Shown piece by piece: positions 5,028 through 23,825 of a DNA stretch of 64,000 nt. The stretch is from assembly GCA_022566215.1 (NCBI GenBank), contig JADFJJ010000003.1:2445-66444 (forward strand). The letters are read 5' to 3'. Origin of the DNA: Pseudomonadota bacterium (GTDB lineage: Bacteria; Pseudomonadota; Alphaproteobacteria; Sphingomonadales; SMXR01). Every line of letters starts with the position of its first letter. Position 1 is the stretch's first letter. The position numbers and the translations under genes are program-made. The notes under the pieces were generated by a model. The model worked only from the letters and a program-made list of their open reading frames with translations. It was not told the origin of the DNA and searched no databases.

Positions 5028-5149
5028 AAGGCTTAAATTCCGCCCAATTGATTTATACAGTGAAATGCCGGATTAGCTCAGCTGGTAGAGCAGCCGCCTT
5101 GTAAGCGGCAGGTCGTCTGTTCGAGTCAGACATCCGGCACCATTTTTTT
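5028..5149 (+). repeat. 122-bp direct repeat, copy 1 (39-bp flank + tRNA-Thr + T-run)
   Basis: Identical in length to 8858-8979 and differs at only 7 positions, all inside the tRNA T-arm. Confidence 0.95.
5067..5142 (+). tRNA. tRNA-Thr (anticodon UGU)
   Basis: Fold: GCCGGAT-TA-GCTC-AGCTGGTA-GAGC-A-GCCGC-CTTGTAA-GCGGC-AGGTC-GTCTG-TTCGAGT-CAGAC-ATCCGGC-ACCA. All four arms pair, the T-loop is canonical, and CCA is encoded. Confidence 0.95.
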
Positions 5150-6194
5150 AAGCAGCTTTTTCCTGTTTCCCGGAAATATTAATTTTAATACCCATGGCAT
5201 CGCCAATCCGCCTCAGGTCCTCCATCAATCGGCCGAAAGTCTCAATGCTGATGGTTTGCCGGGAATCCGAGACAGAGGCATCGGGGTCCGTATGTGTCTC
5301 GATCATAACGGCGTCCGCGCCAACCGCTAATGCGGCTTTTGACATCGGGGCTATCAGGTGACGCAACCCGGTCCCGTGACTGGGATCAACCAGAATCGGC
5401 AGATGGGTTAATTCACGCAAAACCGGGACAGCGGCAAGATCCAGTGTGTTGCGGGTATGGGTTTCAAATGTTCGAATACCGCGCTCGCAAAGGATCACAT
5501 TAGCGTTGCCAAAGCTTAGAATATATTCAGCCGCCATCAAAAGCTCAGTATAAGTGGCGGCCCAGCCGCGCTTCAAAAGAACCGGTGTTGTGGAAGTGCC
5601 TGCTTCCTTCAGAAGGGCAAAGTTTTGCATGTTGCGGGCGCCAATTTGCAGAATATCCATATAATCCGCAACCAGCGGAACATCTTCGACTGTCATTACT
5701 TCCCCCACGGCCAGCAACCCATGAGTATCCGCGGCGTTTCGCATGTACTTGAGGCCCTGTTCGCCCAAACCCTGAAAAGCATAAGGGGAAGTCCGGGGTT
5801 TAAAGGCCCCGCCGCGCAACACACTCGCCCCGGACTTTGCCACGGCCTCGGCAATTTCGTGAATCTGAGTTTCAGACTCGATCGCGCATGGACCCGCAAA
5901 AACAGTAAGTGAACCATCTCCAATCTTAACGTTTCCAAGGTCTATAACCGTTTGTTCCTGGCGGAAATCCTTACTGGTGAGTTTGAATTTGTCAGGAAAA
6001 GGCGTCACCTTTTCTACCAGTGGAAGATGGGAAAATAATTCAGCCCTAGTGAAATTATCCACACCACGGACCAGCGCCAGGCTCGTTCCAACCCCATCTT
6101 TTCCAAGTGACACCTGAAAGCCCATGGTTTCCAATTTATCAATCAGCAAATGTATGTCCGCACTTGAGGCATTTTTATCCAAATTCAAAATCAT
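5148..6194 (-). CDS. 3-deoxy-7-phosphoheptulonate (DAHP) synthase, type I-beta with N-terminal ferredoxin-like regulatory domain
   Basis: Motifs GPCAIES, KPRTSPY, IGARNMQN, LLKRG, CERGIRTF and DPSHGTG, preceded by an approximately 90-aa extra domain. Confidence 0.9.
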   Translation of the reverse strand: MILNLDKNASSADIHLLIDKLETMGFQVSLGKDGVGTSLALVRGVDNFTRAELFSHLPLVEKVTPFPDKFKLTSKDFRQEQTVIDLGNVKIGDGSLTVFAGPCAIESETQIHEIAEAVAKSGASVLRGGAFKPRTSPYAFQGLGEQGLKYMRNAADTHGLLAVGEVMTVEDVPLVADYMDILQIGARNMQNFALLKEAGTSTTPVLLKRGWAATYTELLMAAEYILSFGNANVILCERGIRTFETHTRNTLDLAAVPVLRELTHLPILVDPSHGTGLRHLIAPMSKAALAVGADAVMIETHTDPDASVSDSRQTISIETFGRLMEDLRRIGDAMGIKINISGKQEKAA

Positions 6195-6209
6195 GTCATT
6201 TTTTCCTGT

Positions 6210-6845
6210 TTAGTAGGATGTGAGCGGGGCACTAGCAAACCCCCGGTAGGGCTGAAATGTACACCCGGTTGCAAAGCCGTCACATTGATCCAGATAGTTT
6301 TTGAACAACCTCTCGCCGGCCGGGGTCAGCACAGATTCCGGATGGAATTGAATCCCGTAAGTCTGGTGCTCACAGTGACGTATACCCATCAGCACACCAT
6401 CGAAGCTTTCAGCCTCAATAATCAGTTCCTTCGGCAAACTTTCCCGGTCGACGATCAATGAATGGTAGCGCGCCCCCTCAAAAGGCAATGGCATATTGAG
6501 GTAAAGGCCGGTCCGGGTATGAAAAATGATGGTTTTCTTGCCATGTACCACTTGGTCCGCCGGGATAACCTTGCCGCCAAAAGCGAGTGAAATGGCCTGA
6601 TGTCCCAGGCAAATCCCTAAAATGGGGATTTTCCCCGAAAAAGTGCGAACCACATCCAAACAAATCCCCGCATTTTCCGGCCGCCCGGGTCCGGGAGAGA
6701 GAACAATGCCCAATGGCTGCATCTGCTCAATTTCAGCCAGTGAAATTTTGTCGTTTCGTATAACCTTTACAGCAACCCCAAGTTTGGCGATGCCCTGGAA
6801 GATGTTGTATGTGAAACTGTCGTAGTTATCGATCAGTATAATCAT
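6210..6845 (-). CDS. trpG: Anthranilate synthase component II / aminodeoxychorismate synthase glutamine amidotransferase
   Basis: Class I GATase: ILGICLGHQ (catalytic Cys) and GIQFHPES (His/Glu). Overlaps the trpE stop by 4 nt. Confidence 0.9.
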   Translation of the reverse strand: MIILIDNYDSFTYNIFQGIAKLGVAVKVIRNDKISLAEIEQMQPLGIVLSPGPGRPENAGICLDVVRTFSGKIPILGICLGHQAISLAFGGKVIPADQVVHGKKTIIFHTRTGLYLNMPLPFEGARYHSLIVDRESLPKELIIEAESFDGVLMGIRHCEHQTYGIQFHPESVLTPAGERLFKNYLDQCDGFATGCTFQPYRGFASAPLTSY

Positions 6846-8332
6846 GCCAGTCCCCCTTCAGCCAACGCAATCGCCTCAATGACCGAACGCGCTTTGTGAC
6901 GCGTTTCGTCGGCCTCACACTGGGGGTCGGAATCGGCGACGATGCCGGCGCCCGCGCGTACGCTGGCGATACCGTCAGCAAAAACTGAGGTTCGAATGAT
7001 GATGCAGCTGTTCAGGTTGCCATTAATGTCAATGGCGCAAACCGCCCCTCCATAGACATTGCGCCGCGCCGTTTCCAATTCATCAATAATTTCCATGGCG
7101 CGAATTTTTGGAGCGCCGCTGAGTGTACCCGCCGGAAAAGTGTGCCTAAGGGCGTCAAAAGCATCACGGCCCTGTTCCAATGAGCCTGTAACGGTGGACG
7201 AGATATGCATAACATGGGAAAAGCGCTTAATCTTCATCAGTTCATTTACCTTGACGCTGCCTGGCTTTGAAATAACCCCCAGATCATTTCTGGCAAGATC
7301 AACCAGCATCATGTGCTCGGCGCGTTCCTTGTGGTCATTAAAGAGCTCCGTTTCCAGCGCAAGGTCATGGCCGCCCTCGCCGCGCGGACGGGTGCCGGCA
7401 AGCGGGCAGCTTTCCAGGACACCGGCCTCCAAACTCACCAGCTTTTCAGGCGAAGCGCCAATAATAACCTGATCACCCAGATCCAGATAGAACATGAACG
7501 GTGACGGGCTGATCAGGCTTAACGCCCGGTAAACATCAAAGGGTTCGGCTGTGAACGGAACTTCAAAGGTGCGTGACAACACCACCTGAAAAACATCTCC
7601 GGCGCGGATATAGCGCTTGGCCTTATCGACAATTTCCTTGAACGCCTGATCGTCCATCGTTTCCTGAATGTCCAGTTTAACGGCCTGGTTGCTGATCCTG
7701 TCATTTCCGTTTCGGGCAGGCGTATCCATCAGGGAGCCTACAATGGCATCGATCCGCGTCATGGCGTCATTATAAGATTTGTCATGGTTGCCGCCGGCTT
7801 GCACCAGGGTAGAGACCACCGCTTTCCCGGTCTGGTGGTCAAAAGCAACGGTATCCTGGTAACTGCGGAACACGATCTCCGCCGGGCTGTCTTTTTGGAG
7901 ATGGCGGTCGGGGATATTTTCGAACAGCCGGACACTGTCATACCCCATATACCCGATTAAGCCGCCGGTATACCTGGACAGAAAATGTGAAGATACCGGA
8001 GCCCTGTCCGTCTGCAGCTTGCGTAACAGATCAAAAGGGACGCCTTCCACAGTCCGGGTTTCGCCCCTTTCGTTTATGGTCAACTTGCGATTCTCGGCCC
8101 TGACCTCAAAAACAGGGTTGAAATGCAAAAAGCTGTAGCGGCCCAGATGGCCGACCAGACCGGATTCGAGGAGGGCCGCCCCTTTGGCCTGGCCGCCCAA
8201 GGAGCGGAACGCCCCGGTTGGGGTAATACGGTCACCTGGAATTTCACGGTAAACCACAACCGCCCGGTTATCGCCGGCAAGTTTTTCATATTCCTTTTGG
8301 GATAAAAAATTAAGCATCACTTTTTCCACCAA
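6842..8332 (-). CDS. trpE: Anthranilate synthase component I
   Basis: Chorismate-binding family motifs: LLES near the N-terminus, PLAGTRPRG, GTLSGAPK, GGAVCAID...IIRT. Start could also be MLNFLS at 8317. Confidence 0.9.
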   Translation of the reverse strand: MVEKVMLNFLSQKEYEKLAGDNRAVVVYREIPGDRITPTGAFRSLGGQAKGAALLESGLVGHLGRYSFLHFNPVFEVRAENRKLTINERGETRTVEGVPFDLLRKLQTDRAPVSSHFLSRYTGGLIGYMGYDSVRLFENIPDRHLQKDSPAEIVFRSYQDTVAFDHQTGKAVVSTLVQAGGNHDKSYNDAMTRIDAIVGSLMDTPARNGNDRISNQAVKLDIQETMDDQAFKEIVDKAKRYIRAGDVFQVVLSRTFEVPFTAEPFDVYRALSLISPSPFMFYLDLGDQVIIGASPEKLVSLEAGVLESCPLAGTRPRGEGGHDLALETELFNDHKERAEHMMLVDLARNDLGVISKPGSVKVNELMKIKRFSHVMHISSTVTGSLEQGRDAFDALRHTFPAGTLSGAPKIRAMEIIDELETARRNVYGGAVCAIDINGNLNSCIIIRTSVFADGIASVRAGAGIVADSDPQCEADETRHKARSVIEAIALAEGGLA

Positions 8333-8368
8333 TGCCCTGAAGGTCCAGCGGAGGTGGATAAAAGTTTG

Positions 8369-8656
8369 TTAATCCATTGCCTCCTGAAGAAAAGCACGGA
8401 GCTCTTCGCTGATGGTTTTCAGACTGTTTGACCCCCGCGTTATTTTTGAAATACTCACTTCAAAATCTCGCGACATGTCTCTTTGGTTTTTCTCTCCTTC
8501 CAGCAAGCCCTTTATAATCAAATACCGTTTGGCAAGGGCCTCCCGTTCTTCAAATGTCAGAAAAAGGTCGAAATATTCACTCAGTCTTTCAGGGTTTTTA
8601 ACCCTGCCTGTTAACGCCAGAAAGCGCCGCCAATCGTCTTCCTTTTTCTCGGTCAT
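8369..8656 (-). CDS. YerC/YecD-like (TrpR-fold) DNA-binding protein
   Basis: 95 aa. FLTFEEREALAKRYLIIKGLL...QRDMSRDFEVSISKITRGSNSLK matches the Trp-repressor-like YerC family pattern. Confidence 0.75.
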   Translation of the reverse strand: MTEKKEDDWRRFLALTGRVKNPERLSEYFDLFLTFEEREALAKRYLIIKGLLEGEKNQRDMSRDFEVSISKITRGSNSLKTISEELRAFLQEAMD

Positions 8657-8735
8657 GTTACCCTCCCAAGGGTCTGCCAGCCTGCCATGCCCTCACCATA
8701 CACTCATTTGAAGGGTCTCACCGGCTTAATGCTAC

Positions 8736-8753
8736 GTACCGTTACATCAGTAC
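8736..8753. promoter_or_regulatory. GTAC-N10-GTAC element upstream of the yerC-like/trpE operon
   Basis: GTACCGTTACATCAGTAC has the same GTAC spacing as the E. coli trp operator GTACTAGTTAACTAGTAC and overlaps a CGTTA/TAACG inverted repeat. It lies about 80 nt upstream of the ATG at 8656. Confidence 0.3.
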
Positions 8754-8857
8754 ATAACGCGAGTCAATAAGTTAAAATCCGGTCAGCCTTCAAAAGACCT
8801 GATTCTTTTACCTGCTGGGGATTGGAAACGAGTTGCTCGCGGATATTATGTGAGCGG

Positions 8858-8979
8858 AAGGCTTAAATTCCGCCCAATTGATTTATACAGTGAAATGCCG
8901 GATTAGCTCAGCTGGTAGAGCAGCCGCCTTGTAAGCGGCAGGTCGCTTGAACGGTTAAGACATCCGGCACCATTTTTTT
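8858..8979 (+). repeat. 122-bp direct repeat, copy 2
   Basis: Same flank AAGGCTTAAATTCCGCCCAATTGATTTATACAGTGAAAT plus tRNA body as 5028-5149. Confidence 0.95.
8897..8972 (+). pseudogene. tRNA-Thr(UGU)-derived pseudo-tRNA with disrupted T-arm
   Basis: Identical to 5067-5142 except that the T-arm reads GCTTGAACGGTTAAGAC. The stem no longer pairs and the TTCRA loop is lost. Confidence 0.7.
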
Positions 8980-9094
8980 TGAGGAATTTACTTTTGGCTC
9001 CCGAGTGTGTTCTGGTTTTTCAAGAAGACCAGCTTTAACAATAAAAAGATGGGTGAGCGATCTTTGGCGACGCTCGCCGCCAAGCCCGGTGAGA

Positions 9095-9979
9095 TTAACA
9101 AGGCCGGCCGAATTTTACGAAACGGGAGGTTCGTATTAAGCAACACTGTGAATCAGTGATTTGATCCGCCGATCCACCGGGTTGGTCGGTCATCACGTTA
9201 TCCGGGTCTTCCGAATGCCCCCATATATCTGCAAGGTGAGCAATCTCCTGAACGACGACGCCTCCATCACCGCCACGGTCTACGGTAACCCAGTCTGTCC
9301 CGGGGTAAGCGCACCCGCTGGCGTCGATGATATCTTCAACGAAGTAGATTGTTACAGTGGAACAGCATCTGCAAGTGTTGGCGGAGAACCAGGTGAAGAA
9401 CCGTCTGAACATCCCTCCGGGTTCGCAGGTCGTTGAAGTGAGATATTCTGGTTTAACGACGATTTCGAGGTTACATACCACCAAAATAATATTGCACCGC
9501 CTGAAGATTTCAGCTGCTTTTTTCATCATTGCTTCCACGTCTGGTATGGAAATTGCCGGATTTGCAGTATCCTCTGCCAAAATCTTGACGCAAACGCCGA
9601 TATATTTGGTGGGTTTTATGCCGGCCCGGCAAAGCAGTAATGCCGGAAGCCGAATTATCCAGTCGATGACCCAACATATCCATTTAAGAATGTAGATTAC
9701 GTATTCGACTATGACTTCAATCCATTCAAAAATTCTCCGAATGACTTCTTCGCAGACCCAATCCCAGACTGTTTTCACAACCTCAATGAGTTTTGTAACC
9801 AATTTGCAAAGTTTATTAAAAGGCCAAGGCAGCCACCCACAAATTTTATTAACCACCTCTATGATGACCGTCAGGAGGGAGCTCACCCATTCACAGACGG
9901 TTTCAACGATCGTTCGGACAATGAGGATCAGAGTCCGAACCAGTGTAACGATTGGGGATAGGATTGCAGCACAAAACAT
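9095..9979 (-). CDS. Cys/Trp-rich hypothetical protein: repetitive hydrophobic N-terminal half plus metzincin-like C-terminal domain with a degenerate zinc motif
   Basis: 294 aa, with 18 Cys and about 12 Trp by my count. Repeated V-x-x-[VI]-C-x-W-[VI] units in residues about 25-120. C-terminal GCAYPG ... QEIAHLADIWGH ... NVM resembles HExxHxxGxxH plus a Met-turn, but with Q in place of the first His. Confidence 0.6.
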   Translation of the reverse strand: MFCAAILSPIVTLVRTLILIVRTIVETVCEWVSSLLTVIIEVVNKICGWLPWPFNKLCKLVTKLIEVVKTVWDWVCEEVIRRIFEWIEVIVEYVIYILKWICWVIDWIIRLPALLLCRAGIKPTKYIGVCVKILAEDTANPAISIPDVEAMMKKAAEIFRRCNIILVVCNLEIVVKPEYLTSTTCEPGGMFRRFFTWFSANTCRCCSTVTIYFVEDIIDASGCAYPGTDWVTVDRGGDGGVVVQEIAHLADIWGHSEDPDNVMTDQPGGSADQITDSQCCLIRTSRFVKFGRPC

Positions 9980-10061
9980 GGGAGGTTTCCTTGGTTGGCC
10001 GTTTATGCTCTTGTTAATTGATTTACTATTGGCGTAATTAAATTAATAATTGTGTTTTATC

Positions 10062-10144
10062 AAGGCTTATTTTGAAAACAGGCTGGTAGAGCAGCCGCCT
10101 TGTAAGCGGCAGGCCGTCTGAACGGTTAAGACATCCGGCGCCAC
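10062..10144 (+). repeat. Truncated copy 3 of the tRNA-Thr repeat
   Basis: Starts with the same AAGGCTTA as copies 1 and 2, then GCTGGTAGAGCAGCCGCCTTGTAAGCGGCAGGCCGTCTGAACGGTTAAGACATCCGGCGCCA. The acceptor and D-stem 5' half is missing. Confidence 0.85.
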
Positions 10145-10152
10145 TCAAATCT

Positions 10153-11154
10153 TCAAACCGTCACGACAATCTTGCCGATCTGCTGGTTGGATTCCATATA
10201 TTCATGGGCTTTTTGAATGTCTTCAAATTTAAAAACCCTGTCGATCACCGGAACCAGGCTTTTGGATTTCAGCCCTTCAAGGATAAACTCTTTGGCCTTG
10301 GCCAGCCGGGCTGGATCCAGGGTCACCTCGGCCAGCGTATAGCCATGGATCGTCAAACCTTTGATGAGCGAAGCAAACAGAGGAAAGATCGCCGGCCGTC
10401 CATCCAGGGCGCCGTAAACTATAATTTTTCCGCCCCGCGCCGCAGCCTCCGCCGATTGCTCCAAAAATGGCCCGGCGACCGGATCAAAGATCAGGCCGGC
10501 ACCCCGGCCTTTGGTAATTTCCATGACCCGGCCGGCAAAATTTTCATTGTCGGTTTGAATGACGTGGTCCGCCCCGGCGTCTAAAAGCGCCTGCACTTTT
10601 TTAGCCCCGCGGGTGGTGGCGATGATTTTTGCCCCCAAAATTTTTGTAATCTGGATCGCGGCCAGGCCAACGCTGCTGCTGGCCGCCGTGATCACCACCG
10701 TCTGGCCCTTCTTAAGCCCGCCGACATCAACCAAAGCCCCGTAAGCGGTGATATATTGCATCCAGATCGAGGCCCCTTGCCGGGCGCTGAAATGTTCCGG
10801 GTATCTGGCGACCAACATGGCCGGCACCACCGCGCTTTCGCCGTAAACCCCGTACCTGCTCATGGAAAATCCGGGAATGGTGCTGACCCGGTCGCCGGGC
10901 TTGAACTCGGTGACGTCCTTGCCGACCGCATCGATAATCCCCGCCGCCTCATAGCCCAGCTTAGATGGCAATTGAGGCGTCTCGAGATAAGCGCCCCTCC
11001 GGAACATCACCTCGGCGCGGTTGAGGCCGATCGCCTCGACATTAATGCGAACCTCGCCGTCTCCCGGGTTTTGCACCGGCTCCAGTTCGATTTTCAGGAC
11101 CGAGGCATCGCCGGTCTCATGGAAACGAACTACTTTTGCTTGAGATGCTGTCAT
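10153..11154 (-). CDS. Zinc-type alcohol dehydrogenase/quinone oxidoreductase family (MDR) protein
   Basis: 333 aa. GEVRINVEAIGLNRAEV and the nucleotide-binding AASSSVGLAAIQ pattern are typical of NADPH:quinone reductase-like MDRs. Confidence 0.8.
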   Translation of the reverse strand: MTASQAKVVRFHETGDASVLKIELEPVQNPGDGEVRINVEAIGLNRAEVMFRRGAYLETPQLPSKLGYEAAGIIDAVGKDVTEFKPGDRVSTIPGFSMSRYGVYGESAVVPAMLVARYPEHFSARQGASIWMQYITAYGALVDVGGLKKGQTVVITAASSSVGLAAIQITKILGAKIIATTRGAKKVQALLDAGADHVIQTDNENFAGRVMEITKGRGAGLIFDPVAGPFLEQSAEAAARGGKIIVYGALDGRPAIFPLFASLIKGLTIHGYTLAEVTLDPARLAKAKEFILEGLKSKSLVPVIDRVFKFEDIQKAHEYMESNQQIGKIVVTV

Positions 11155-11285
11155 TTTCTGCTCCCTGGCTAAATCCTATACTCCGTCACTTACCAATCAT
11201 ATAATCCATCACCCCCCTTAAAGCAGGCTTAATGGCCTTGGTGTTAGAAAATATTGCAGTGATTTTTAGTATTTTCCAGGCAAGT

Positions 11286-11603
11286 TTAATTGCTCTGCTG
11301 GCGCAGGTGATAGCGTTCGCCATCGAAACCCTTGAAAATCCGCTCGGCATCAGGGTGGACGATCCGCCTGGGCGTTTCTGCGGCTTCGAGGTTTTGCTCG
11401 GCCACATAGGTGGTGTGAAGCGCATTGTTGACCAGCACGTGATACCAGGGTTCATCCTTCGGCGGCCGGGAAAGCGCCACCTCGCGGTACCATTGCCCGG
11501 TCCCTTGAAAGCCGGGATCGACGTCGAAAATAACCCCAACATACTCAAACAGCCGGTGGTGAATGATTTGCCCGATCTGGAATTTTGCTTGGCTTTTTAA
11601 CAT
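11286..11603 (-). CDS. hspQ: Hemimethylated-DNA-binding / heat shock protein HspQ (YccV family)
   Basis: KFQIGQIIHHRLFEYVGVIFDVDP...PWYHVLV pattern. Start taken at MLKSQAKF (11603). Confidence 0.75.
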   Translation of the reverse strand: MLKSQAKFQIGQIIHHRLFEYVGVIFDVDPGFQGTGQWYREVALSRPPKDEPWYHVLVNNALHTTYVAEQNLEAAETPRRIVHPDAERIFKGFDGERYHLRQQSN

Positions 11604-11651
11604 AGCGGCCGCCAGGGCCATTCTATCATAGTCCTGGCCGGAGGGGAAACC

Positions 11652-11685
11652 GCAGCCGTCTGAGCGCTTAAGACACCCGGCGCCA
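11652..11685 (+). repeat. Copy 4: 3'-terminal fragment of the variant tRNA-Thr repeat
   Basis: GCAGCCGTCTGAGCGCTTAAGACACCCGGCGCCA aligns to the variable-loop/T-arm/acceptor 3' part of copy 3. Confidence 0.7.
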
Positions 11686-12983: not shown

Positions 12984-14018
12984 TTAATCCGGATAAAGGA
13001 ACCTGACCTCGTAATCCAAACATTGCTCACTGTTCTCAGCGTTCACACAACGGCCGCCAAGGGGTAAATCGCAATGGTAAACTTGGCCCGCATCCTGCCA
13101 GTCCACTCCATCCAGTGTCCGGCACTGGATGCAGATCGGATCGGGCTCTTGCGGTAAAACCCCTTCCTTGATGAAATCACTCACGGTCTCGTAGTCACCC
13201 TTACCGCTCGGATTGTCCCGGTCAAGCCAGGATGTCCAGGCGCCGGCATAGGTCACCACAGTGAGAATCATATAATCCACCGCGGTATCGTCCTGAATAT
13301 AAACATCCAACAAATTACCGGCGTTGATACTTGAGATAATTGTCTTTCCGCTTCCGCTTGGCGGCAGATCGGCCAGATCAAGCCTGGTCACGGCGGTCTG
13401 CCCCTTTTCCCAGGTCCCGTTTGCCTCTGGCAGGTCCTTGATTGAAATTCCCCAGGCAAAGGTTGGGGATCCATTTTGGTTAAAATTGAGATGGAGCTGG
13501 TCGTTGGACGGAAGGTCCGGCCGGGCCTTGAGGCCGATTTCAAGCATGGCGCAGGTGATATCCGCCGGCAAATCGCTAAAGGTGTGCCCAAACACCCGAT
13601 TGCTGGCTGGATCATCAAACTGCCGGTTCGGGAACGCGCCATTGTTGTACTGGTCCATATGAGTCTGAAGGGCCGGACTTGGAGACGTTGCCTCAGTGCC
13701 ATCGCTGGTAACGAAATTGTCCGGATTGCCCGCATAAAAAACATTGAGCAGCTGTTCTCCGCCGCAAGACTCATCACAACAGGCAGGCAATGCGATCTCC
13801 AGCGGTCCGCGGTAGTAAGACCCATCTATATCGGCCTTGTCATTTTTGCCGCGGCGCTCGCCCTTTTTCATTTTTTGCTTTTTTTCTTTGGCGAAAGCCG
13901 GTTTTTCCACTTGTTGCTGACTGGCGCGTTCTTGAGCGCTTGCAAATTGATACGCCCCACCCAACAGCATGGATGCGGCGAGCACAGTACAAGACAGTGT
14001 AAGTAAACGTATTCTCAT
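12984..14018 (-). CDS. Secreted protein with C-terminal mucin-type WxxW (CysD-like) domain
   Basis: Signal peptide (start taken at MRIRLLTL, 14018). The C-terminal 87 aa read WTSWLDRDNPSGKGDYET...ICIQC...GGRCVNAENSEQCLDYEVRF, matching the WxxW-repeat domain pattern as I remember it. Confidence 0.65.
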   Translation of the reverse strand: MRIRLLTLSCTVLAASMLLGGAYQFASAQERASQQQVEKPAFAKEKKQKMKKGERRGKNDKADIDGSYYRGPLEIALPACCDESCGGEQLLNVFYAGNPDNFVTSDGTEATSPSPALQTHMDQYNNGAFPNRQFDDPASNRVFGHTFSDLPADITCAMLEIGLKARPDLPSNDQLHLNFNQNGSPTFAWGISIKDLPEANGTWEKGQTAVTRLDLADLPPSGSGKTIISSINAGNLLDVYIQDDTAVDYMILTVVTYAGAWTSWLDRDNPSGKGDYETVSDFIKEGVLPQEPDPICIQCRTLDGVDWQDAGQVYHCDLPLGGRCVNAENSEQCLDYEVRFLYPD

Positions 14019-14099
14019 TGGAACCTCCCCCAGGGTATGGACCAAAATACTTTTATTAGAGTGTATTTATGGTTGTTTTACTTGCGTAGTACTCTCATA

Positions 14100-21045: not shown

Positions 21046-22440
21046 CTATTCCACGTATTCCGCGCCTGCCAATTCCGGAAGCGCCCGGATTTGCTTCTCG
21101 ACCAGCGCCATATCACCGACCACCACCAGGGTCATTTGATCCAGCGGCAGCTGGGAATTGGCCAGCGCCGTAACCTCTTCATCGGTCACCTCAAGCACCC
21201 GTTCGACAAAGGTATTGAGGTAAGAGGCATCCAGCCCCTGCAAATCGAGCGCCGCCAGCTGGCCGATAATGCCGCCTCTGGAGCCGTTCTGCAGGACAAA
21301 AATCCCGGCCATATAATTCTGCACCTTGTCAACTTCCTCGGGCGGCGGCACGCTGGCCTGCAGGTTCCTGATTTCATAGAATATTTCAGTCAGCGCCGCA
21401 CCCGTAACATCGGTGGTAATATCCGCCACCTGAACCCAGTAGGCGGTGCCTTTGCGGTGGGCGATCGAGGCGCGCGGAGAGTAGGTGTAGCCCTTATCCT
21501 CGCGGATATTCTGGGTAATGCGCGAAGAGAATGAGCCGGAAAGCAGCGTGTGCATGACCCGGAATTTCACATAATCCGGATCGCGCATGTCTTTGACCGG
21601 CAGGCCTAAATAAATGGTCGATTGTTCCGATCCCGGCCGGTCGATCAGCTTGACCCGGAGCGAACTGTGAGGGTCGGGCGGAAGGTCAAGCGGCGCCGGG
21701 CCCGCCTGCCAATCACCAAAGGCGCCGCGGATGGCCGCCTCCATCTCCCCGGGATCAAACTGGCCGACCACGTAAATCCGGGTCCGGGCCGCTCCGAAAT
21801 TCTCACTGTAATATCCTTTGATGTCCTCAATCGTATAGGCTTCCAGCTGCTCTTCGCCCGCGAACAGGACGCCGTACGGGTGATCGCCGTAAAGCAGCTT
21901 GGCGAACGCTTCCGAGGCGAGGCTTCTCGGGGTGGTTTTGGCGATGCTTAAATTTCGCAGGAAATTCTGCTTGATGCGCGGAATTTCGCTCGAAGGAAAG
22001 GCCGGGTTTTGCAGGATATCGGCCATCAGCCGGATGGCGTCACCGCCAAACTCACTCAAAACATCCATCGAGACGCTGGTCTGGTCCAGGCCGACGCCGA
22101 TATTAACTCCGCCCCCCATGTCGGCCGCCGCGTTGACGATATCGAGGGCCGAGCGCGAAGCGGTGCCTTCCTTCATCAGCTCACCGGTCAGGTCGGAAAG
22201 CCAGGTATCGGCGCCTTCGTTCTTGTTGCCGGTCTCGACCACCACGCTGATCGTGACCTTGGGCACAATGCCGAAATAAACCAAGGTGACCCGAAGCCCG
22301 TTATCCAGCTGAAATGTGACCGGCTCGGCCAGCTCAAAGGGCTTGGGCTGGCCGGGCGGCGGCGGCAACTCACGGGCCAGCGCCGGCAGTGCAAAGATGC
22401 CGATCAGGATCAGGACAAGGGTTTTGCCTAAGTGTCTCAT
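21046..22440 (-). CDS. M16 family peptidase, non-catalytic-type subunit (no HxxEH)
   Basis: Signal peptide and M16 fold-like repeats. Overlaps the upstream M16 gene by 4 nt. Lacks the inverted zinc motif. Confidence 0.75.
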   Translation of the reverse strand: MRHLGKTLVLILIGIFALPALARELPPPPGQPKPFELAEPVTFQLDNGLRVTLVYFGIVPKVTISVVVETGNKNEGADTWLSDLTGELMKEGTASRSALDIVNAAADMGGGVNIGVGLDQTSVSMDVLSEFGGDAIRLMADILQNPAFPSSEIPRIKQNFLRNLSIAKTTPRSLASEAFAKLLYGDHPYGVLFAGEEQLEAYTIEDIKGYYSENFGAARTRIYVVGQFDPGEMEAAIRGAFGDWQAGPAPLDLPPDPHSSLRVKLIDRPGSEQSTIYLGLPVKDMRDPDYVKFRVMHTLLSGSFSSRITQNIREDKGYTYSPRASIAHRKGTAYWVQVADITTDVTGAALTEIFYEIRNLQASVPPPEEVDKVQNYMAGIFVLQNGSRGGIIGQLAALDLQGLDASYLNTFVERVLEVTDEEVTALANSQLPLDQMTLVVVGDMALVEKQIRALPELAGAEYVE

Positions 22441-23825
22441 GATGCGTCTCCTTCCTCAGGTTGGGCCGGAAGCCGCCGGATCACCGTCCGGTTGGTGGAG
22501 CGCAGGTATTCGGCCGCGGTTGCTTTGATCAGCTCCGGCGTCACCTGGTCGAAATCACCCTCAAGCGCATTGATGCGCGCGGGGTCGTCATCGAACAGCG
22601 CGAACGAGGCCAGCAGGTCGACCAGCCCGAAGCGGGTGGTCGAGCCGACCGTGTCATAAAGGGATGAGCGGACTTTTCTCAAGGCCCTGTCCACCTCTTC
22701 CTGGCTGACGCCATCGCTTTTGATCTCTTCAATCACCTCATCGACCGCAGCCATGATCGCTTCGTGGGAATTTTCGGAGCTGTGGATCAAGCCCACCGCC
22801 CACAGCATCGGGCCGGAATAGTTGTACATATTGCCGATCATGTTGATGCCGCCGAAAACGCTGTCAGTGACCCCCATCTCCTTGACCAGTTTCTGGTACA
22901 GGCGGCTGTCTTCACCCTGCAGCAGGATCAGGTCGATCAGCGCCATGGCGTAGTATTCAGGTGTGCCCCGCTCGGGCATGTGATAGCCGAAAGCGAGCGC
23001 CGGCTGGGGCGCGAACGGATCCACTTTTTCAGCGAATTTCTCAACCTCCTGGCGGGGCTCGGAAATATCCACCTCAGGGATCGGATCGCCGGCCGGGATG
23101 ACGGCGAAATATTTCTCGATCCAGCGTTTGGCGTCCGCAACCTCAAAATCCCCGGCCACCACCAGCACTGCGTTGTTGGGCCGGTAATAGGTGTAGAAAA
23201 AGCTTCTGACGTCCTCCAGCGTGGCCGCTTCCAGATCCTCAAGATCACCATAGAAATTGTGGGCGTTGTACCAGTTCTCATTGGCCGCTTGCGGCAGATC
23301 CAGCCACGGGAAGCCGCCGTAGGGCCGGTTCAGGACATTGACCTTGACCTCGTTCGAGACCACGCCCTTCTGGTTTTCCAGCGTTTCCTCGAGGAAATTG
23401 ATCTCGGTCATGCGGTCGGCCTCGACCCACAGGATCGGCTCCAGCTGGTGGGAAGGCATAATCTCGAAATAATTGGTGTAATCAAAGCGGGTCGAGCCGT
23501 TGTTGACGCCGCCCCCGCCCTCGATCATTTTATCGAACTCGCCTTCCGGCATGTTGGGGGTGCCCTCGAACATCAGGTGCTCGAAAAGATGGGCGAAACC
23601 GGTGCGCCCCTTGGGTTCGATGCGAAAACCGATGTTGTAATAAACCGCCACGGTGACGGTCGGAACCGACCTCTCGGGCGCCAAAATCACCCTGAGACCG
23701 TTATCCAGCCGGTAATAATCGACCTCGACGTGAAGGCCGGGCGCTCTCGCCTCTTCCGGCTGGCCGCAGCCGGCCAGGGCCAAAATAAATATGATGCTGA
23801 AAAATTTCAGGAAGGTGCGTTTCAT
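22437..23825 (-). CDS. M16 family zinc peptidase (pitrilysin-like), catalytic-type subunit
   Basis: Lipoprotein-like signal (LALAGCG) and the inverted zinc motif HLFEHLMFEG. Confidence 0.85.
   Translation of the reverse strand: MKRTFLKFFSIIFILALAGCGQPEEARAPGLHVEVDYYRLDNGLRVILAPERSVPTVTVAVYYNIGFRIEPKGRTGFAHLFEHLMFEGTPNMPEGEFDKMIEGGGGVNNGSTRFDYTNYFEIMPSHQLEPILWVEADRMTEINFLEETLENQKGVVSNEVKVNVLNRPYGGFPWLDLPQAANENWYNAHNFYGDLEDLEAATLEDVRSFFYTYYRPNNAVLVVAGDFEVADAKRWIEKYFAVIPAGDPIPEVDISEPRQEVEKFAEKVDPFAPQPALAFGYHMPERGTPEYYAMALIDLILLQGEDSRLYQKLVKEMGVTDSVFGGINMIGNMYNYSGPMLWAVGLIHSSENSHEAIMAAVDEVIEEIKSDGVSQEEVDRALRKVRSSLYDTVGSTTRFGLVDLLASFALFDDDPARINALEGDFDQVTPELIKATAAEYLRSTNRTVIRRLPAQPEEGDAS

Follow-up and report, generated by a model that had tools for sequence, protein, structure and literature searches.

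A gene at positions 9095-9979 (minus strand) of a 64,000-nucleotide stretch of contig JADFJJ010000003.1, from an alphaproteobacterial genome, encodes a protein of 294 amino acids that is best described as representing a new metzincin family, distinguished by a novel hairpin module at its N-terminus and by a first metal ligand that varies naturally between His and Gln. The whole stretch is called the window in what follows. Few proteases have been studied as thoroughly as the metzincins, in which the three-His site is regarded as fixed. The more than 100 natural sequences of this family that carry Gln at the first ligand with the other catalytic residues intact are a ready variant series on the role of that ligand in metal affinity and selectivity. 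This question is so far known to have been addressed by one algal enzyme only, VMP3. The protein as a whole is best explained as a two-module metallopeptidase, a reading that we consider probable.

The structure was predicted with AlphaFold2 (AF2), run on an alignment of 56 family sequences (mean predicted local distance difference test score (pLDDT) 90.5; predicted template modelling score 0.78). Residues 1-118 are predicted to form one long antiparallel helical hairpin and residues 119-294 an alpha/beta catalytic domain. The gene and the parts of its product are placed in the window as follows.

9095-9979, minus strand: complete gene, ATG start, 294 codons plus the stop codon at 9095-9097 (from the list of open reading frames, ORFs)
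9833-9976, minus strand: hairpin helix 1, residues 2-49 (AF2, block pLDDT 75-93), with C3, C29 and C47 invariant in the 56 sequences
9821-9832, minus strand: hairpin turn L50-P51-W52-P53, within the motif W-L-P-W-P (AF2 helix break at 50-53)
9626-9820, minus strand: hairpin helix 2, residues 54-118 (AF2), which holds C58, C76, C102 and C117
9098-9625, minus strand: predicted metzincin-fold catalytic domain, residues 119-294 (AF2 topology, Foldseek and profile matches)
9215-9250, minus strand: variant motif Q244-E245-I-A-H248-L-A-D251-I-W-G-H255, the Q244 codon being CAG at 9248-9250 (alignment to canonical relatives)
9191-9193, minus strand: Met263 of the Met-turn (N-V-M), present in 112 of 112 sequences with Gln at position 244 (Q-type) and in 49 of 50 with His there (H-type)

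The predicted catalytic domain and its putative metal site

The ORF at 9095-9979 is a real gene. A spurious ORF inside an AT-rich spacer between tRNA remnants, which the low guanine-plus-cytosine content (GC) and isolated position of the gene might suggest, is refuted by its full-length homologs, by 28 invariant alignment columns and by the confident fold prediction, and we give it practically no credence. An earlier note on this DNA, made by a model from the letters of the sequence, had looked to a lack of homologs, together with poor coding statistics, for the sign of such an ORF; a large protein collection holds 168 of them at E<=1e-3, with 50-74% identity over the full length. All 168 are called hypothetical or are unnamed, and nearly all are derived from metagenomes. 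The family is rare, since a HMMER scan of 1.84 billion cluster representatives returned just 131 clusters at E<=1e-3. The 28 columns that are invariant in the 56-sequence alignment include 14 Cys, E245, H248, H255, N261 and M263.

Searches of the window protein itself against Pfam, NCBIfam and PDB sequences gave noise only (CNNM, PSM-delta, a designed repeat protein), and a direct family assignment was dropped for that reason. A cluster look-up of the homologs supplied no further names. One homolog only carries a precomputed Pfam tag, PF28501, an entry that may already cover part of the family. Wherever a source name is available the family is unnamed, and it could receive a family definition.

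The predicted structure and the more distant relatives place the C-terminal domain in the metzincin clan. The AF2 topology, beta-alpha-beta-(alpha)-beta-beta-beta-alpha...alpha, is the order of elements of metzincins (strand 125-135, helix 145-160, strands 164-175, 208-214, 222-224 and 230-234, helices 239-249 and 276-283). The prediction contains the twisted five-stranded sheet with an antiparallel edge strand, the backing helix, the active-site helix and the C-terminal helix that define the fold. Foldseek gave 61 matches in the PDB (E<=0.001); metzincins take up all of the best 50 of these, with snake-venom metalloproteinases, ADAM8 and fragilysin at the head (E from 2e-5, template modelling score ~0.6 on the target). 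The best match in BFVD is a phage 'matrixin family metalloprotease'. In addition, the family profile has matches at E ~1e-4 to fragilysin, karilysin and the matrix metalloproteinases (MMPs), which cover the zinc helix and the Met-turn.

Relatives that are only 22-30% identical to the window protein carry the canonical HExxHxxGxxH and Met-turn. One of these, P0199, reads HELGHACGLTH...NLM and lies above the Pfam cut-offs for Reprolysin_5 and Reprolysin_3. When 21 diverse relatives were compared with Pfam, Peptidase_M10 was matched by 7 (best E 1.3e-8) and Reprolysin_5 by 5, with further matches to Reprolysin_3/4, Astacin, M7 and M57. Sequence homology to metzincins is thus reached transitively, through relatives that match Peptidase_M10 and Reprolysin_3/4/5. 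The catalytic Glu beside the first ligand, E245, is invariant in 162 aligned sequences, and the Met-turn is present as N261-V-M263, its Met being invariant in the 56 sequences and found in 161 of the 162.

Two points weigh against this assignment. The literal signature HExxHxxGxxH/D is absent from the window protein, which has QEIAHLADIWGH, with Gln at ligand 1, Asp for Gly and the third His at +11; and the protein itself has no Pfam, NCBIfam or PDB sequence match, so that the assignment rests on transitive homology and predicted structure. On that footing the window protein is homologous to metzincins and stands for an unnamed, rare bacterial family within the clan. The earlier note had read the C-terminal half as metzincin-like, with Gln for the first His and the third His shifted by one residue, and the alignment with canonical relatives, AF2 and Foldseek all agree with it.

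Relative to the canonical HExxHxxGxxH, the window motif QExxHxxDxxxH...M has the first His changed to Gln, the turn Gly changed to Asp and one extra residue ahead of the third His. A motif can be recognised in 207 family sequences, of which 121 have Gln and 86 have His at position 244; no other residue occurs there. On a neighbour-joining tree His is the deep state and Gln dominates the clade of the window protein; His reappears in several nested groups, and Gln is also found in deep branches. A Fitch count on this tree (162 sequences) gives at least 10 changes between His and Gln, a number that is approximate because the tree is a distance tree. The Gln codon is CAG or CAA in different lineages. 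Could Asp251 be the change that makes His244 dispensable? This was rejected, as Gln is not tied to Asp: the turn residue in Gln-bearing sequences can be G, D, L or E, and both the canonical and the longer spacing occur among them.

Does the Gln, then, mark a dead enzyme or a retuned one? A pseudo-protease would have lost catalysis with the change from His to Gln, leaving the domain as a binding or scaffold module and any activity in the hydrophobic hairpin. This would suit a protein without the first canonical zinc ligand, with Asp for the turn Gly and with the third His out of its usual place, and one that draws no match from the peptidase models of Pfam. Activity is lacking in snake-venom PII homologues that have Gln in the position of the third His, or that combine a Glu to Asp with a Gly to Cys substitution (PMC5086652), which also counts against an active enzyme here. 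However, Glu245, His248, His255 and Met263 are each retained in 112 of 112 full-length Q-type sequences, and the active site is otherwise near-identical in H-type and Q-type proteins. Dead enzymes normally drift at such a position, whereas position 244 has stayed confined to His and Gln through all of its switches. This is the pattern predicted by purifying selection on a working metal site rather than by a relaxed pseudo-enzyme. An active precedent exists as well: VMP3 of Volvox has QEXXHXXGXXH and is described as active and copper-preferring (Heitzer & Hallmann 2002, as cited in PMC7717551), and the H197Q substitution in MMP8 was computed to stabilise Cu(II) (PMC7717551). A dead enzyme is unlikely in view of this conservation, and the inactive homolog that the earlier note had offered loses ground with it. 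Judging from conservation and from the analogy with VMP3, we favour as the probable case that the enzyme is active and its metal site has been retuned.

The N-terminal hairpin and the cysteines

In the 56-sequence alignment P53 of the hairpin turn is invariant, and W49, L50, P51 and W52 are at least 90% conserved. The hairpin is 66% hydrophobic and has a strong 100-degree amphipathic periodicity with a narrow polar stripe. Because two helices alone cannot bury such a hydrophobic surface, the hairpin must be packed in an oligomeric bundle or onto the catalytic domain, or else be associated with a membrane, at its surface or within it. It may be a new device for membrane anchoring or oligomerisation. 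Pfam and NCBIfam searches found no named family for this module, which the earlier note had likewise not recognised.

The protein contains 18 Cys and 12 Trp, exactly as had been counted, and its only His are H248 and H255. The strings quoted earlier are all present: VETVCEWV, VNKICGWL, FNKLCKLV, WDWVCEEV and LKWICWVI in the N-terminal half, IYFVEDI..SGCAYPG and VVVQEIAHLADIWGHSEDPDNVM in the C-terminal half. The former had been taken for the units of a repeat in which Cys follows a hydrophobic residue. True sequence repeats were rejected, since the pattern is insignificant within a single sequence (a hydrophobic residue precedes all 7 Cys with p ~0.05, given 66% hydrophobic content). What does exceed chance is the invariance of these Cys across 56-162 homologs and their mirror symmetry about the hairpin turn, and to that extent the observation holds.

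The six hairpin Cys are mirror-placed, such that 3+102 = 29+76 = 47+58 = 105. This register is what one expects if the Cys of an antiparallel hairpin with its turn at 50-53 face each other. Co-variation was scored as the presence or absence of Cys across the 162 sequences, and the phi coefficients are 0.98 for 29/76, 0.95 for 117/280, 0.88 for 185/223, 0.83 for 162/279 and 0.81 for 47/58. By Fitch counts the pairs 29/76, 117/280 and 185/223 were gained or lost on the same branches. From such pairing we argue for disulfides, and hence for an oxidising compartment.

Several observations pull the other way. C3 and C102 do not change together in the Fitch counts, and their pairing, which the geometry suggests and co-variation does not support, was set aside. 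The co-occurrence of 169 and 294 is mostly one clade-level gain, and C117, C162, C279 and C280 co-vary as a group. The Cys of archaemetzincins were first taken for disulfides and are a Cys4 zinc site (PMC3427221). At the aligned N-termini, which include members from monoderm and diderm phyla, and in the hydropathy of the window protein, no signal peptide, lipobox or Tat motif was seen by eye, with no predictor run; the N-terminus is hydrophobic and has no basic n-region. Disulfide formation is not easily reconciled with the lack of a visible export signal, which for so Cys-rich a protein raises the question of how it is exported.

If the enzyme is active, where does it work? It might be a cytoplasmic or inner-leaflet-associated metalloprotease, as archaemetzincins are, with Cys that serve as metal ligands or reduced core residues and an amphipathic hairpin on the cytoplasmic face of the membrane. 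The candidate sites would be a Cys4 structural site formed by C117, C162, C279 and C280, or bis-thiolate Cu(I) across the hairpin. Besides the export signals, the co-varying group of four and the archaemetzincin precedent just given, this is favoured by distant relatives that begin with cationic amphipathic helices and have few Cys, and by copper-related neighbours at a few loci. Against it, the isolated cross-helix pairs 29/76 and 47/58, ~18-26 residues apart and lost together, have the signature of disulfides and not of tetrahedral metal sites. The closest structural relatives (snake-venom metalloproteinases, ADAM8, fragilysin and the like) are all secreted enzymes, and in a few homologs a C-terminal transmembrane helix with an Arg-rich end would put the bulk of the protein outside. 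A cytoplasmic location is possible, if on the unlikely side. Alternatively, the protein could be a membrane-attacking toxin, whose Trp-tipped hydrophobic hairpin inserts like a fusion loop or a colicin-type hairpin and whose protease is delivered or accessory. The hydrophobicity of the hairpin with its invariant aromatic tip WLPWP would agree with this, as would a gene that is standalone and mobile. Phage tape-measure proteins also match the N-terminal region, weakly and through composition (PHROGs, E ~1e-3; FtbJ, E 3e-6); these matches are read as low-complexity helical similarity, and a tape-measure relationship was rejected. No immunity-like or secretion-system neighbour is conserved across lineages, PADLOC gave no matches, and the family was not found in 72,556 plasmids (PLSDB), 50,697 GenBank phages or the contigs of IMG/VR. 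A toxin is very unlikely on this evidence.

In the two-module metallopeptidase that we prefer, the mirror-placed Cys would form disulfide staples, and the hairpin would serve as a stalk, either to fix the enzyme to a membrane or to bring about its oligomerisation. Residues 119-294 would be a working metzincin catalytic domain. Glu245 would act as the general base on a metal-bound water, with His248 and His255 as metal ligands and Met263 underpinning the site. Gln244 would replace the first His ligand, Asp251 possibly being an extra ligand. By analogy with VMP3, the change from His to Gln would not kill the enzyme but would alter how strongly it binds metal or which metal it prefers, perhaps in favour of Cu(II).

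CHCH proteins are twin CX9C disulfide-stapled helical hairpins. A bolder version of the mechanism, which we think quite unlikely, would have the first ligand toggle between His and Gln as an adaptive metal switch (Zn versus Cu). The enzyme would sit on a new 'giant CHCH-like' hairpin, stapled by disulfides, whose WLPWP tip enters membranes, and its export would need no classical signal. If true, prokaryotes would have yielded their first metzincin with a preference for copper, and with it a natural experiment on metal selectivity.

Genomic setting and distribution

The gene appears to be monocistronic in the window and is a compositional outlier. Its GC of 0.475 is the lowest among the 45 long ORFs of the window (mean 0.56, sd 0.04), and its GC at third codon positions (GC3) is 0.517 against 0.677 (sd 0.082) for these ORFs. 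The genes at 5148-9979 have a low GC3. The 5' half had been singled out as AT-rich, and GC is indeed 0.42-0.43 over 9450-10050 compared with 0.52-0.57 in the flanks; within the gene it is 0.444 for the first 120 codons and 0.496 for the remainder. The upstream spacer and four copies of tRNA-Thr lie around the gene.

9980-10081, minus strand: AT-rich upstream spacer of 102 nucleotides (GC 0.43-0.45), with AAGGAA 8-9 nucleotides before the ATG
5067-5142, within the repeat 5028-5149: tRNA-Thr(TGT) copy 1, the only copy that looks functional (cloverleaf)
8897-8972, plus strand: tRNA-Thr copy 2, full-length and degenerate with a broken T arm, in a 122-nucleotide direct repeat (8858-8979) of 5028-5149
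10082-10143, plus strand: tRNA-Thr copy 3, a 62-nucleotide 3' fragment with a derived T-arm common to 8947-8972 and 11660-11685
11655-11685: tRNA-Thr copy 4, a 3' fragment with the same derived T-arm

The spacer presumably supplies the gene with a promoter and a ribosome-binding site of its own. The metzincin gene is set apart from QOR, the gene upstream of it, by a terminator-like hairpin with a T-run (10096-10081, minus strand) that the tRNA fragment forms. The repeat 8858-8979 is 94% identical to 5028-5149, and this includes 40 nucleotides upstream of the tRNA. Copy 2 scores 45 bits with Rfam; it is not called by ARAGORN and has no cloverleaf fold. Copies 2-4 have the derived T-arm sequence AACGGTTAAGAC in common. 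The gene had been placed between tRNA copies 2 and 3; the 1.1-kb segment in which it lies is bounded by tRNA-Thr-derived direct repeats, but copy 2 is degenerate and copy 3 just a fragment.

Each copy has its CCA end 6-120 nucleotides away from a stop codon, that of a gene or operon on the minus strand; these units are aroG-trpG-trpE-trpR-like, the metzincin gene, QOR with YccV, and an ORF of 183 amino acids. The arrangement over 5028-11685 resembles small cassettes lined up in tandem where elements integrate at a tRNA, although there is no integrase within ~20 kb. At 22 of 23 homolog loci scanned no tRNA stands beside the gene (at the remaining locus, L027, a tRNA-Gly is ~120 nucleotides away), and no flanking direct repeats were present at the 11 loci examined for them, so the tRNA-repeat frame is specific to this genome. 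A metagenome scan with a 20-mer of the derived T-arm found only two chance matches within unrelated coding regions.

Elsewhere in the window, an ORF of 353 amino acids at 12984-14045 (minus strand) has a C-terminus that matches Pfam Mucin2_WxxW (E 9e-16), a domain named after animal mucin-2. Two adjacent M16 (insulinase-type) peptidase genes at 21046-23825 (minus strand) are apparently ordinary and unrelated to the metzincin gene.

An identical protein of 294 amino acids is encoded on 13 contigs, NCBI GCA_022567935.1 among them. With one genome taken for each of 185,579 GTDB species, a scan turned up 21 loci, every one in a metagenome-assembled genome (MAG). These belong to Gamma-, Beta- and Alphaproteobacteria, Gemmatimonadaceae (Gemmatimonadota), Dehalococcoidia (Chloroflexota), Flavobacteriaceae, Chitinophagaceae and Lentimicrobiaceae (Bacteroidota), and Acidimicrobiia (Actinomycetota), and identity reaches 71% across phyla. 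One homolog is labelled Pyrinomonadaceae.

The C-terminus varies within the family. Most close homologs have an extra basic tail of ~30 residues with a conserved motif (...GEPFxRKERG), which is missing from the window protein, P0090 and P0082. Truncation of the window protein by a frameshift was rejected, because no remnant of the tail lies downstream of the gene in any frame and some homologs also end in ...PC. Five others (P0087, P0089, P0101, P0111 and P0121) are longer by 70-90 residues, with a transmembrane-like hydrophobic helix followed by an Arg-rich cluster, an extension that the window protein does not have. The giant SdrD_B/CarboxypepD_reg repeat protein P0185 (3093 amino acids) matches query residues ~168-233 in 13 stretches (E 2.7e-14), which may be due to a shared Cys/Thr-rich segment or to low complexity.

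No gene near the homologs is common to different lineages, according to an all-against-all BLAST of ~27 independent loci (at 1e-8 and 1e-4) and a Pfam search of 130 neighbours. The exception is a tyrosinase gene and an ORF of 415 amino acids that are shared within Chitinophagaceae only. In two MAGs of this family (L018, 4046-4963; L022, 4016-4933) the gene for the tyrosinase, a type-3 copper enzyme of 306 amino acids with no obvious signal peptide, shares its strand with the metzincin homolog and ends 38 nucleotides ahead of it. Protease and copper oxidase could thus form an operon, seen in this one lineage only. The homolog P0076 (L031, 1-10990) lies between a multicopper oxidase with an AbiEii toxin-antitoxin pair and Nramp with type IV secretion system genes (TrbI, CagX, VirB8, TrbL), and it looks like the cargo of a conjugative element. 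Other homologs adjoin an IS1595 transposase (L034), or are near a DUF411 gene (L033) or Metal_resist/CusB-like genes (L001). The copper theme at L018/L022, L031, L033 and L001 was not counted as evidence because the lineages are too few and such genes are common on mobile elements; tyrosinase, multicopper oxidase and DUF411 neighbours are confined to three lineages. The copper link is anecdotal, and this tells against a copper role in our reading.

The patchy distribution across phyla, the outlying composition, the flanking tRNA-derived repeats and the mobile-element neighbours at other loci support horizontal acquisition of the gene, in line with the suggestion of the earlier note. The gene probably travels horizontally as single-gene cargo.

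Comparison with known systems

The window protein belongs to none of the metzincin families M43, M54, M12B, M10A and M11. The earlier note had compared the C-terminal domain with the pappalysin/ulilysin type (M43). These share the metzincin fold, and PAPP-A appears at Foldseek ranks 36 and 46 (E ~3e-4); however, they rank below adamalysin and fragilysin, and Peptidase_M43 is matched neither by the window protein (E<=10) nor by the 21 diverse relatives (E<=0.01). By fold and profile the nearest types are adamalysin, fragilysin and matrixin, so the comparison with M43 has been given up. Archaemetzincins (M54) are, like the window protein, small Cys-rich metzincins without signal peptides. They lack the hairpin, and their signature HEXXHXXGXXHCX4CXMX17CXXC is absent from the window protein, in which H255 is followed by the Cys-free stretch SEDPDNVM.

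The best structural matches are M12B (snake-venom metalloproteinases and ADAMs) and fragilysin (BFT-3), at E 2e-5 to 2e-4 and a template modelling score of ~0.6 on the target. The predicted domain has their five-stranded sheet, active-site helix, Met-turn and C-terminal helix. Sequence identity is only 8-16% and the Cys pattern differs; the window protein does not have their signal peptide or prodomain, the hairpin is unique to it, and Gln stands for the first His. No Reprolysin model matches it at E<=10, and H255 is followed by Ser and not by Asp. Matrixins typically have Ser after the third His. With the matrixins and karilysin (M10A) the family has Ser/Thr at this position in common, together with the profile alignment at the zinc helix and Met-turn. 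The window protein differs from M10A in a turn that is longer by one residue, with Asp for Gly, and it has neither a Peptidase_M10 match nor a PRCGxPD cysteine-switch prodomain.

VMP3 of Volvox carteri (gametolysin family M11) is a natural metzincin with Gln for the first zinc-binding His, and the family member P0129 is literally QExxHxxGxxH, as VMP3 is. VMP3 differs in being a eukaryotic, modular, hydroxyproline-rich protein of the extracellular matrix. Peptidase_M11 is matched by neither the window protein nor the 21 diverse relatives. As no specific relationship is detectable, the Gln of VMP3 and that of the window family are taken as convergent.

The hairpin itself can be compared, by description only, with the CHCH (twin CX9C) hairpins. 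It is ~4 times longer, bacterial and fused to a protease, and has no sequence relationship to them. What it has in common with them is an antiparallel helix-turn-helix with equally spaced Cys that pair across the helices, a pairing that is putative here and would involve a 'twin CX17C' (29-47 / 58-76) extended by a CX25C (3-29 / 76-102).

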